Assembly: GCA_951406725.2 (NCBI GenBank)
Contig: OX597820.1
Span: 30,442,001-30,506,000, forward strand
Length of the DNA: 64,000 nucleotides
From: Octopus vulgaris
Taxonomy: Eukaryota
Direction of reading: 5' to 3'
Part shown: positions 1-23,652 of the stretch, one piece after another
How positions within the stretch are numbered: the stretch's first letter is position 1
Layout: each line of letters begins with the position of its first letter
Notes under the pieces: model-generated
Databases searched by the model: none
What the model was told of the DNA's origin: nothing
The model's input: the letters and a program-made list of their open reading frames with translations, nothing else
Made by a program: the position numbers and the translations under genes

Positions 1-69
1 CTCAATCCGTTTGTCTGTCTCCTCTATGTTTAGCCCCTTGTGGGCAATAAAGAAATAAGAAAAACAATA

Positions 70-1050
70 CCATTTTGATGTTTGTGGTAAAACATTTTTC
101 TGACAATAGTGAGTTCTCCCACCACAAACGTATTCATGCGGACCTGATGCGTGTAGTAAAAGCCTTTATTTGCAAGAATGTGCTTTTTTGTTACAAATAT
201 ATCTACAGAGAAAGAAAATTCTGTGAGTGCGGCATCTGTGATAAAGCATTTTTTAGTAATAGTGAGCTATCTTGCCTCAAAGATAATCACAGAGAGATAG
301 AGAATCCATACGGCCATGTTATCTGTGGTAAAACCTTATCTCATTGCAGTAATTTAATTTTTCTACAAACGTATTCCCATGGAAGAAAAAAAAATGTGAT
401 TGTGAAGTTTGCGGTGTTATGTAGGGAGAATTTGCCATCTTTGTTGTAGTGGTGACTTGCTGGTGTATGTTGTTAAAGATCATCGTTGTGTGGTCGCCGA
501 TCTAAGCTGGCTGTGCGTATAATAAATGAAGCAAACTCATGAACTTTTAACTTATTTATTGATGGAAATGAATTACTGTATTGCTATCTAGAAAAGAAAA
601 ACTGCTGGCTGGGATAACAGCCGCGTTGCGTCTCGTTAAAGGCTAACTCTGGTACATTGTGAGTGAGTATTTCACATGGCCTCTTGCCCAAAGTGGTCTG
701 CCTGAATGAAGTGCCAAATTGTTTTAATAGGGTGAAATGGGAGAGAATTTTAGATCATCAGTGAAGCAATATCACACCACAGCTTCATGCTGAAAACTGT
801 AATGGCTTACTTGTGATCCCAAACTGAATATTTTGTGGTTGGAGTGTGAACCCCTACAGTGGTAAGGCTTTTTCTAACAACAGTGAATTTTTCTTTTGCG
901 AACTTATTCATATGAGAGAAACCTTGATACTAGATGCCTGTGATGATTCATTTTTAGCAACAGTGAGCTAGCTAAACAAATATATTCATATAGGAGAGAA
1001 AACATACATCTGTGATGTTTCTGAGAAAGCATTTTCAGAAAGTAATTTAT
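70..1050 (+). pseudogene. Decayed C2H2 zinc-finger array interrupted by a solo LTR
   Basis: Repeated degenerate finger motifs (CECGICDKAFFSNSEL, ICGKTLSHCSNL, HKRIH, IHIGEKTYICDVSEKAFSE). Many fingers have lost Cys/His residues or are frameshifted. The finger CEVCG|KAFSNNSE is split by the 415-858 insertion. Confidence 0.8.
415..858. mobile_element. Solo LTR-like insertion, possibly with a nested second LTR at ~489-781
   Basis: Starts TG and ends CA, with terminal inverted motif TGTAGGG (420)...CCCTACA (858). Flanked by GCGG/GTGG, a possible 4-bp TSD. Removing it restores the zinc-finger frame. Confidence 0.55.
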
Positions 1051-4019: not shown

Positions 4020-5259
4020 TTATGTTGGCAAGAAAGTAATTTCATTTTTCGCTAATAGAGTTATGATTTTTTTTTATGACATTTGTCAATGTTATGATTT
4101 TTTCCTTTTGACATTTGATAGCCATTACTTTAAGCTTACTTTAAAAGCAAATTGTGCATAATTTTGTTTACATCTGTTAGTTCAGTGTCAATTTTAACAT
4201 GGAATTCAAAACCAAATATTTTTGCCAAATTTTGCTTTTTTTTATTTCTGTAAAGACAAGAAAGCTGCTGAGGCTTTCAAAGAGATATGTGAAGTCAATG
4301 GTGTTGATTGCTTAACAGAACACACATGTCAGAAATGGTTTAAAAAATTCTGTTCTGGAGATTTTTCACTTAAAGATGACCAAATCAAAGCTATAATTGA
4401 ATCTGATTGTGATATAACTGTGTGAGAGATTGCAGAGAGGTTAACTGTATCAGACACAATTGAAAATCATTTAAAATGTCTTGGACTCATTAAGAAGCTC
4501 AATATTTGGGTTCCACATAAATTGAAAGATTCACTTAACACAACGAATCAATATTTGCAATATGCATCTCAAGCGCAATGAAATTGACCTTTTTTTGAAA
4601 CGAATCATTACTGGTGATGAAAAATGAATTGTCTACAATAACATCAATCAAAAATGACCATGGTCCAAGTGTAATGAACCAGCACAAGTCACATTGAAAG
4701 CTGAATTGCATAAAAAAAAAAAAAAGGTCATGCAGTCAATTTGGTGGGATTATGAAGGTGTTGTGTATTTTGAGCTGCTTTCAAGGAACCAAATGATTAA
4801 TTCAAATATTTACTGTCAGCAGCTAATGAAACTGGAGGAAGCAATTAAAGAAAAACGGCCAGAATTGGCAAATCATAAAGGAATCTTGTTCCACCATGAC
4901 AACGCTAGACCACATACGTCTTTGCTAACTCGTGAAAAATTATTGGAGCTTGGTTGGGAAGTGATGTCACATCCACTGTATAGCCCTGACTCAGAAGTTA
5001 TCATTTATTTTGAAGTTTGCAAAATTCTTTGAATGATAAAACTTTAAATAACGATCATTTGAAATCACACTTGCATCAATTTTTGGATGATAAAGATCAG
5101 AAATTTTATAAGCACAGAGTCATGAACATACCAGAAAGATGGCAAAAGGTCATCAACCAAAATGGAAAATATATAATTGATTAAAGTTCATTCTTTGTAT
5201 GAAAATAAATTACTTTTATTTCACACTAAAAACCCAAATTTACTTTCTTGCCAACCCAA
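4020..5259 (+). mobile_element. Full-length decayed mariner (Tc1/mariner) transposon
   Basis: TIRs TTATGTTGGCAAGAAAGTAA / TTACTTTCTTGCCAACCCAA with TA TSDs. Transposase remnant 4199-5184 with WVPHKL, ITGDEK*, SIWWDYEGVVYFELL, HHDNARPHT and HPLYSPD, containing stops and frameshifts. Confidence 0.95.
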
Positions 5260-20672: not shown

Positions 20673-21902
20673 CTTTAATAGAAATAACCCATAACATCTG
20701 CAAAATATTTTTTTTAAAACACTCAAGGGAAATAATCCATTTCATTATTTATGTTTACTTTGAATATTGATTTTTTGTGTGTCCAATTTCTAATTTTTGC
20801 AGACAATATCACTTTATTTGACATGTGAGTAGAACTCATGTCTGGAAACTTCATGACACTTAGATTGTTGAAAAAAAATCGATAATAGGGCTCCTCCAAT
20901 GGATCCTTCTATCTACTACATATCACTAATATTTTATTTAAACAACCCAAGGGAAATAACCCATACCACCTGCAGATTTTAGCAAAGCGATCAATATTTG
21001 ATTCTCACGAACGGCCAACCTAATTCTGCATTTCACTACTCACGGTTTTGAACTGCTAAACATTATTATTGCACTTCTTTAATTTGAATCTTAAATGTTA
21101 AAGACTTCATTCATACATTTCTATACATACATATTTTTCTGAATGCCCATTACTCTGATATTTCTGCAGTTTTACAGTTACACTTTTTCCATGACAGTAG
21201 ATAAATTTTTTTATTCCACAATGTATTTGTAGTGGCTTCATGCAGGCATAGCGAGGATTCGATCCTCAATTGCCAAATTCCACTCAACACTTCAACAGCG
21301 CTTTTCTCACAGTAAAACAATAGTTTTTCTGTGAATGACAACAGTTATACATTTCCCAGCTGCCTTCACTAAGCAGAATAATATCTTTGCTGCTTGACCC
21401 TTCTATCCTCTTCTAGGCCACCAATGGCTGGAATGAAGATAATAGACCTCCAACGAAATTATTTGTTCTCAACAATATGTCTATTCTTCTGGCTGCTTTT
21501 TGATAGTTATAAAAACCAGAACTTCATAAGCTAAAGGCATACATATATATGTATGTATGTGTATGTAATACAATTTTTCTGAATTTTCAGATTTTTATAT
21601 ATACTAGGCTACTGGTTTTAAATTGATGTTAATTAAATTAATATTCAATTTATCACCCTCATTATGTATGTATATATACATATATATATATATGTTTGTG
21701 TGTGTGTGTATATAGATATATATATATTTACTTATATATAAAGTATACTAGCCATCTCAATATGGCTAACCACTAGGGGTGGGTGTTACTGTAGCTTTTT
21801 AGCCCCAGGAGATCATCGTCTCCAGCTGGCTTTAGACACAATTTCTGTGACCTTATGATATTTGCAAAGGGAGGTCATCCCCTCTTGTAAACCTAAGTGA
21901 TA

Positions 21903-21947
21903 CGCATGGACTGCAGTTTCGAGATTATTGTCTCTTGTCAACACACG
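21903..21947 (-). ncRNA. Minimal type-I hammerhead ribozyme, U3-A8 core variant (sense to THEM6 pre-mRNA)
   Basis: Minus strand reads CGTGTG-TTGACAA-GAGA caataa TCTC-GAAA-C tgca G-TC-CATGCG: stem I, core, stem II, GAAA, palindromic stem III, GUC cleavage triplet. Confidence 0.8.
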
Positions 21948-22274
21948 ATAATCACCGGTTTTCGATGAGGAGAGACCTGTTTGCAAATATCCATTTAATG
22001 TTTTTCCCAGTAACCACTGTCACTGATTTCGAAAAACGGTCTGAAAGCAATAATAAATCTCTGAATGAGATGTAAACAGTAAGCGCTTGACAACGTAAAG
22101 TATACTAGCCATCTCAATATGGCTAACCATTAGGGGTGGGTGTTACTGTAGCTTTTTAGCCCCAGGAGATCATCGTCTCCGAGATTTATTATTGCTTTCA
22201 GACCGTTTTTTGAAATCAGTGACAGTGGTTACTGGGAAAAACATTAAATAGATATTCGCAAAACAGGTGATTAC

Positions 22275-22319
22275 CGTGTGTTGACAAGAGACAATAATCT
22301 CGAAACTGCAGTCCATGCG
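22275..22319 (+). ncRNA. Minimal type-I hammerhead ribozyme, U3-A8 core variant
   Basis: CGTGTG(22275) TTGACAA GAGA-caataa-TCTC GAAA CTGCAG TC^CATGCG, with predicted cleavage after 22313. Identical to the minus-strand copy. Confidence 0.8.
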
Positions 22320-22601
22320 TATCACTTAGGTTTACGAGAGGGGATGACCGCCCTTTGCAAATATCATAAGGTCACAGAAATTGTGTCTAAAGCCAGCTGG
22401 AGACGATGATCTCCTGGGCTAAAAAGCTACAGTAACACCCACCCCTAGTGGTTAGCCATATTAAGATGGCTAGTATACTTTACGTTGTTGAGCGCTTACT
22501 GTTTACATCTCGTTCAGAGATTTATTATTGCTTACTTATATATATTTATCTACTAATGCAGTGTGAGCACTCATTCTCATTGATGAATATTAGCATTAAT
22601 A

Positions 22602-23652
22602 TTGAGTCATCTCAAATAACGCGGGTTTTTCATTTGCATGAACTAACAGTCGGATGGGGACAGGATAAACTACCTGGACCAACTAGCTATAAAAGCAGGT
22701 AGTGACTTTACCTTGAACTTATTCTTAGTGCAAGTTTTGAAGAGTGCAGTTCGATTTTAAGTTATTTTTACAAAGCAATAATGGAAGTGACAAAGGAGCA
22801 TATTCAGCATATTTTGCTTTATGAGTTCAATAAAGGTAACTATGCAAATGAAAGTGAGACATCTGCATGCCATTGGAAAAGTCAGCAAATTGGGTCAATA
22901 GGTTCTTTACAAATTTTCTGAGTCTAACCATATGCAGAGAGCAGATGTATGCTCTTCTTTGTTGTCACGTCTCACAAATGAACTTTTTTCAACCGAATAA
23001 TGACTGGTGATGAGAAATGGGTTCTCTATAAATATGTCAAGTGCTGAAGACAGTGGGTAGAGAAAGGAGAAATACCAGCACCCCCGGCTAAAGAATGTTT
23101 TCACCCATGTAAGGTGTTGTTATCTATTTGGTGGGATATGAAAGGTTTAATCCACTTTGAGCTTTTAAGCCCAAACCAAATGATAACAAAAGGGATCTAC
23201 TGCAAGCAGCTTGAGTGGCTTAAGTCAGTGCTAGAAGGAAAATGACCATCCTTGGTTTCAAGACAAAAGGTGTTCTTCCATCAAGATAATGCTCAGCCAC
23301 ATGCAGTGAGAATGACATTACAAAGGTCGGAGCAGTTTGAATGGGAAACGATGCCCCACTTGCTACATTTACTGGACATTGCCCCATCTGATTATTGTTT
23401 ATTCCGTAGTCTTCAAAATCATTTGGATGGAAAAAAATATGATTTCTGTAGACGATGTCAGAACAGTACTGGAGGAATATTTTTCGTCATGGACAAGTGA
23501 AATTTGGAAGAGGGGCTTTGCAAGTCTACCAGAGAGATGGAAGAGCATTGTAGAAAATGAAGGAGAGCATATTTTGGACTAAAAAAGAACTTTGTTTATC
23601 TTAATTTTGAAAAATGAAAGCATAAAAAACACATTATTTATGGGATGATCCA
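22602..23652 (+). mobile_element. Internally deleted decayed mariner
   Basis: Degenerate TIRs (TTGAGTCATCTCAAATAA / TTATTTATGGGATGATCCA). Transposase remnant 22781-23582: MEVTKEHIQHILLYEFNKG, IMTGDEKWVLY, SIWWDMKG, FHQDNAQPH, DIAPSDYCLFRSLQNHL, LPERWKSIVENEGEHILD*. Confidence 0.9.

Follow-up and report, generated by a model that had tools for sequence, protein, structure and literature searches.

The insertion at 21728-22544 of the window, by which we mean the whole 64-kb stretch of DNA that was analysed, is best read as a dead-end copy of a non-coding hammerhead family (family A), likely inserted in trans by the reverse transcriptase (RT)-endonuclease of a Penelope-like element (PLE), and probably from a circular monomer RNA. 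We put the probability of this reading at about 0.6. On its sequence, the element likely represents a new family of animal (non-LTR) retrozyme, a class that is itself known.

The insertion and its ribozymes

A unit of 357 nt occupies 21739-22095, and its first 85 nt recur at 22096-22180 with 99% identity; arm 1 (21739-22180) is 442 nt long, or 1.24 units. Arm 2 (22178/22181-22533) is inverted and comprises ~1.05 units. Over 377 aligned columns it was 91% identical to arm 1, from which it differed by 12 substitutions, one 1-nt deletion and one 20-nt deletion. The unit repeat and the arm alignment bear out the initial annotation, which had described the unit as running ~1.24 times in one direction and then ~1.05 times in the other. 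The 13-bp target duplication that it had placed at both ends, TTACTTATATATA, was exact and was found in the 64-kb window only at 21728-21740 and 22532-22544. The match does not extend further, and at either end 2 nt are common to the duplication and the element. The features of the insertion are listed below, where E1 and E2 denote the two fixed 3' ends of the family.

21728..21740, plus strand: left target-site duplication, 13 bp, exact, adjoining a (TA)n-rich tract
21739..22180, minus strand: arm 1 (1.24 units), with the hammerhead in sense orientation on this strand and E1, the first of the fixed ends, at its 3' terminus (21739)
21785..21809, plus strand: motif common to family A and its sister family B, a degenerate pattern with 3,193 exact genomic matches
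21899..21951, minus strand: type-I hammerhead fold, predicted cut between 21909 and 21908
22178..22180, strandless: head-to-head junction of the two 5'-truncated arms, with a 3-nt overlap
22181..22533, plus strand: arm 2, 1.05 units, hammerhead-sense on plus, with a 20-nt deletion near 22262; its 3' end is E2
22271..22323, plus strand: second type-I hammerhead fold, predicted cut after 22313
22483..22533, plus strand: segment of ~50 nt between E1 and E2, present at the arm-2 end only and corresponding to the 'tail' of PLEs (PMC8557442, PMC11167929)
22532..22544, plus strand: right target-site duplication, 13 bp, exact

The longest ATG open reading frame (ORF) around the unit encodes 36 aa, in agreement with the description of the unit as non-coding. 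Its GC content is 41%, and its predicted fold has an energy of -109 kcal/mol (z -4.9). The left end of the window copy is E1 and the right end is E2. The two arms do begin at different points of the unit, as had been noted, but at their outer ends they stop at the two 3' ends that are fixed in the family, not at free permutation points. Each arm differs by ~2% from the commonest letters of the family A columns, and the arms share just one rare allele. A read-through transcript of the copy was predicted to fold back on itself, with 86% of its bases paired. The copy holds fewer than two units per strand, and since each strand has a single hammerhead, neither a monomer nor a circle can be produced from it; it is a dead-end insertion.

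Decayed transposase-like reading frames, presumably of mariner type from their motifs, were observed at ~22780-23600 and 4658-5032 (+) of the window, the former adjoining the retrozyme copy. A degenerate frame at 51-449 (+) is one that we take to be C2H2 zinc-finger-like.

The ribozyme lies inside both arms, as previously annotated. In both, the type-I hammerhead fold comprises a stem I of 6 bp, a U3/A8 core, a stem II of 4 bp and a stem III of two pairs whose loop is palindromic. A pattern scan of the 64-kb window for type-I hammerheads returned just these two, on opposite strands. A family-built hammerhead model matched only the same two window sites, but had been trained on both. Rfam at E ≤ 1 gave no hammerhead at the locus and only sub-threshold miRNA-like hairpin matches, probably because the core is the U3/A8 variant. 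This core variant and the folding of dimers through the palindrome have been described (PMC4209133).

Covariation was assessed in 59 of 75 distinct hammerhead sequences, after truncated and near-duplicate ones were left out. In the alignment 94.9% of cells were paired, versus 88.1% when shuffled and at most 56% when slid. Double-sided changes were found in 89 cells versus 28.7 in shuffles, counts that are inflated by relatedness among the sequences. The core pair 3-8 was UA in 46 sequences, CG in 8, UG in 4 and another combination in 1, with both pair types occurring within each lineage, and the palindrome of loop III covaries and remains palindromic. The ribozyme fold appears to be under selection. 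In Xenopus, 8 of 9 retrozyme dimers showed no cleavage in vitro (bioRxiv 10.64898/2026.07.22.740005).

Families A and B and their fixed ends

A first look at the element's own genome (2.8 Gb) gave 2,791 family A candidates, the best 40 of which were scored and had 92-98% identity. The 357-nt unit is therefore multi-copy and dispersed over many contigs, which bears on the copy number that the initial annotation had proposed to check. The exact pattern of the window subfamily's hammerhead had 54 genomic matches. For the motif common to both families, the reversed control gave 0 matches, a metagenome scan gave 0, and 28 of the first 100 genomic matches listed were of the A type. Family B was found via locus L011 (L011:693-1052); it has a 360-nt unit that is ~65-70% identical to that of A, and a C3/G8 core. 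The distance from a column's commonest letter was 3.9% for A copies and 0.27% for B copies, and family B is very young. Its inverted arrays (including L161-L180 and L212), almost all of them located in (TA)n, are dispersed and contain as many as 16 units; the longest keep intact hammerheads. Long arrays also occur in the A lineage: locus L231 (2264-5881) is a homogeneous 10.2-unit array of a young subfamily, 89% identical to the window unit and bounded by a target duplication of ~12 bp. The tandem arrays for which a search had been suggested thus exist in both families.

Four contig sets aligned to the locus, two of them guessed to be RNA, contain related subfamilies. Among 15 of 31 listed joints in these sets, with repeat tracts skipped, none skipped the whole insert. 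A further hammerhead-like motif, of another family, was seen in the flanks of L184 and L221 beside B insertions. Two family A insertions (L010 and L095) are mosaics of two subfamilies, which suggests template switching between RNAs. The literature searched, cephalopods included and with repeat libraries, supplements and subscription papers outside it, held no description of family A or B or of an end-pairing rule in retrozymes; the families may already be named in a repeat library. In the giant squid, 235 Rfam hammerheads have been reported (PMC6962438).

The ends were surveyed in 122 non-redundant loci, after 28 overlapping or duplicated ones were dropped; many of these loci were top matches and do not form a random sample. 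The 3' end lay at E1 or E2 in 110 of 122 cases in family A and in 68 of 70 in family B. E1 and E2 are spaced 44-50 nt apart, at ~173 and 221 nt past the ribozyme cut, and the 5' ends are scattered. Of 70 inverted inserts, 59 had E1 at one end and E2 at the other, 1 had E2 at both, 0 had E1 at both and 10 had one eroded end, so that 59 of the 60 head-to-head inserts with both ends canonical carry one of each. Target duplications span 7-15 bp; they were at least 7 bp long at 21 of 26 non-microsatellite inverted A loci, versus 20 of 650 swapped flank pairs. Arms exceeding one unit were present at 41 of 97 A loci and 30 of 40 B loci, proportions that result partly from selecting full-unit matches. 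Predicted cut sites coincided with 9 of 148 5' ends in A (4.6 expected) and 2 of 70 in B (2.1 expected), so 5' ends do not pile up there. No LTR-flanked internal region was seen at the examined loci.

The end survey replaces the 'permuted' arms of the initial annotation with two fixed 3' start sites and random 5' truncation. That annotation had also proposed reverse transcription round a circular or multimeric RNA with an inversion during insertion. Seamless copies longer than a unit and the PLE-like geometry agree with the first part; the inversion is better read as two cDNAs, one primed on each target strand and joined by microhomology. The same data bear on whether a DNA-level satellite or fold-back repeat, with an incidental hammerhead-like motif, was spread by unequal crossover. 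Tandem arrays do exist, and some variants recur in non-adjacent units, as such a process would predict. Against it stand the target duplications, the combination of fixed 3' and random 5' ends, the spread of copies across many contigs and the compensatory changes seen in the core of the ribozyme, and we regard it as largely refuted and highly improbable.

The probable mobilising enzyme and its template

Two PLE families resident in the genome were compared with families A and B. The one that we take to be Neptune-like, from its RT, CxC-linker and GIY-YIG motifs, had 21,214 candidates, of which 150 were scored; they were 99-100% identical, with open frames of up to 717 aa. Pfam returned no family for its ORF. 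It is a very young, very abundant autonomous PLE (L031-L060, for example L050-L051), with a 63-nt tail, a (TA)n target and an atypical hammerhead-like motif, and 9 of 10 pairs with both ends visible combined E1 and E2. The second, PLE-C (L111-L130), is an older family with 4,017 candidates, ~90% identity between copies, a long-stem hammerhead and a tail of ~160 nt; 5 of 6 of its pairs, read by eye, combined E1 and E2. An inverted copy and a one-sided tail have been described for PLEs (PMC8557442, PMC3846280). One PLE RT has been shown to start internally at two sites that bound the tail, with both target strands cut and extended; there, hammerhead cleavage was dispensable, and unprocessed RNA was the main substrate (PMC11167929).

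Neither A nor B had significant similarity, relative to shuffles, to the pseudo-LTRs of these two PLE families. Both were accordingly rejected as sequence parents, the Neptune-like PLE showing no similarity above shuffles and PLE-C no significant similarity, and the partner PLE was not identified by sequence. PLE fragments near L079, L092, L196, L211 and L219 were likewise rejected as parent ORFs, none being fused in register. A further explanation is that the copies are pseudo-LTR fragments of an autonomous PLE that escaped the search. Their end geometry is identical to that of PLEs, and since the best 40 of 2,791 candidates were scored, a rare parent could have escaped. However, successive units follow one another head to tail without a seam or an intervening ORF, none of 58 single-orientation loci (of 137) had a same-strand PLE ORF fused upstream, and none of 40 loci from the shared-motif list had an ORF in register. 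Among the 58 loci only one pair shares an adjacent flank, of 78 bp. An ORF with RT and GIY-YIG in register with the repeat, the mark of an autonomous EN+ PLE, was not found at the loci examined. We consider this explanation improbable, and families A and B are, as far as their copies indicate, non-autonomous. The initial annotation had allowed for an ordinary pseudo-LTR fragment if all copies were attached to PLE ORFs; in the tested loci none was in register. With multiple copies, no in-register ORF, seamless copies longer than a unit, target duplications and PLE geometry, none of the testable observations that it had set against its own reading was made.

One insertion, present as six duplicated copies, is a chimera of two arms fused head to head. 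One is an A arm with E2 as its end, the other a 5'-truncated piece of PLE-C with the E1 of that element as its end, and ~9 nt of A sequence lie at the joint. The chimera is a single event, in which one reaction probably used two RNAs. Mobilisation by a PLE RT, as originally suggested, thus gains from the two-site end geometry and from this chimera, while no partner PLE was matched by sequence.

Under the main reading, a tandem array would be transcribed, and adjacent hammerheads would pair via the palindromic loop III and excise a ~357-nt monomer, which would be ligated to a circle. A PLE protein would bind this RNA, make nicks ~10-13 bp apart in the two strands of an AT-rich target, and prime one cDNA at the internal site E1 and another at E2. 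Each cDNA would extend for a random distance, past the ribozyme cut site and often for more than one round of the unit. The two 5'-truncated cDNAs would then join head to head through a microhomology of a few bases, giving a product composed of target duplication, arm, inverted arm with tail, and target duplication.

Whether the template was circular was approached through variants within arrays. Of 20 B arrays, 5 had a private substitution in all or the majority of their units, on both arms (in 9 of 10, 5 of 5, 5 of 5, 5 of 6 and 4 of 5 units, respectively), and only 32 of 2,000 shuffles produced one or more arrays of this kind; the remaining 15 of 20 had no private marker and are uninformative. 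Minor alleles were shared within loci in 133 of 641 cases in A (null mean 7%) and 125 of 582 in B (null mean 1%). Private variants on both arms imply frequent amplification from one unit and suggest rolling copying of that unit in B arrays, for which a circular template would be a simple explanation. Because initiation is internal, no 3' end of the template is needed. In four B arrays variants were confined to a subset of units, and L162 and L172 have an end unit without the marker of the array. Neither observation is explained by one monomer circle. The subfamily mosaics L010 and L095, and the window arms, which differ at 12 sites plus indels and have a single rare allele in common, also count against the main reading, as do the dispensability of cleavage for a PLE (PMC11167929) and the uncleaved Xenopus dimers.

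The same element and PLE enzyme could instead have used a linear template, either an uncleaved multimeric array transcript or template-jumped monomers, in which case the hammerhead would not be needed for insertion. This would fit the preference of a PLE RT for unprocessed RNA (PMC11167929), the mosaic loci and the discordant end units. Of 29 long E2 arms, 10 start -15 to +45 nt from E1, where ~5 were expected in a length-biased comparison, which is weakly twin-priming-like. Most E2 arms begin at unrelated positions, and classical twin priming on a single RNA is only weakly supported by the E2-arm starts. Linear cut monomers were not supported as the main template, since 5' ends do not pile up at the cut site. 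A linear template would also require frequent single-unit bottlenecks, because in five arrays both arms are fixed for a private variant that differs from array to array. Arrays that reach 16 units with intact hammerheads also speak against it. A linear template is thus the less likely alternative, and a circle is favoured by about two to one.

Comparison with known systems and significance

Features of retrozymes found here are a type-I hammerhead per unit (predicted fold plus covariation), a non-coding unit whose 357 nt fall within ~170-400 nt and whose 41% GC is below 50%, and genomic dimers to multimers (10 units in L231, up to 16 in B). Those of PLE-mobilised elements are the two fixed 3' ends, the tail at one end and the inverted 5'-truncated copy. 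Metazoan non-LTR retrozymes (PMC7229834; mussel, ~350-390 bp) are alike in their short non-coding unit, type-I hammerhead with a weak palindromic helix III, dimers to multimers, target duplications of >4 bp, strong self-pairing and PLEs in the same genome. Family A differs from them in its sequence, its U3/A8 core and its many inverted or <2-unit copies, and the accessible text of PMC7229834 made no mention of two-site fixed ends with inversions. Circular and linear monomer RNAs and self-cleaving transcripts are characteristic of non-LTR retrozymes and would be predicted for families A and B.

The non-LTR retrozymes of Xenopus (bioRxiv 10.64898/2026.07.22.740005) also occur as monomers, dimers and multimers and were proposed to be non-autonomous passengers of PLEs, a proposal that family A fits. 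Their link to PLEs is co-occurrence and pseudo-LTR homology, whereas here it is insertion geometry and one chimera, with no homologous pseudo-LTR found. The 'active' elements of that preprint have two consecutive hammerhead units, which the window copy lacks. Canonical EN+ PLEs (PMC8557442, PMC3846280, PMC11167929) share the 5'-truncated partial tandems, adjacent inverted copy, one-end tail, AT-rich or (TA)n targets, target duplications of ~8-13 bp and a hammerhead. In contrast to them, family A has no RT or GIY-YIG ORF, has many head-to-tail units and starts ~173 and 221 nt past the cut. The hammerheads of the Schistosoma PLE Cercyon (PMC4209133) likewise have U3-A8 for C3-G8 and a palindromic loop III suited to dimers. 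The Cercyon motif was found via a PLE and is mostly single, whereas here the tandem unit that carries it encodes no protein, and one superfamily contains both pair types.

A 2020 review found no motif in animal retrozymes that revealed the mobilising element (PMC7761336), and the mechanism of retrozyme mobilisation was still to be worked out in the Xenopus preprint (bioRxiv 10.64898/2026.07.22.740005). Here a retrozyme family shows the two-start-site signature of PLEs, with a nearly strict one-of-each rule. More tentatively, and at somewhat less than even odds, families A and B may belong to a retrozyme superfamily that is still active. In that case their insertions would be a record of target-primed reverse transcription running by rolling circle on RNA that had cleaved itself and circularised, carried out by a PLE protein acting as a dimer. 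Its two halves would each prime one target strand from a separate internal start site, and together they could hold two different RNAs, as the chimera of PLE-C and family A would exemplify. If true, the genome would thereby prove which element moves animal retrozymes and how priming occurs on a template without a 3' end. Very young arrays lie beside a very young intact PLE, so that both the RNA and a candidate enzyme are available for an in vitro assay that already exists, and family B offers the best material for bench tests.
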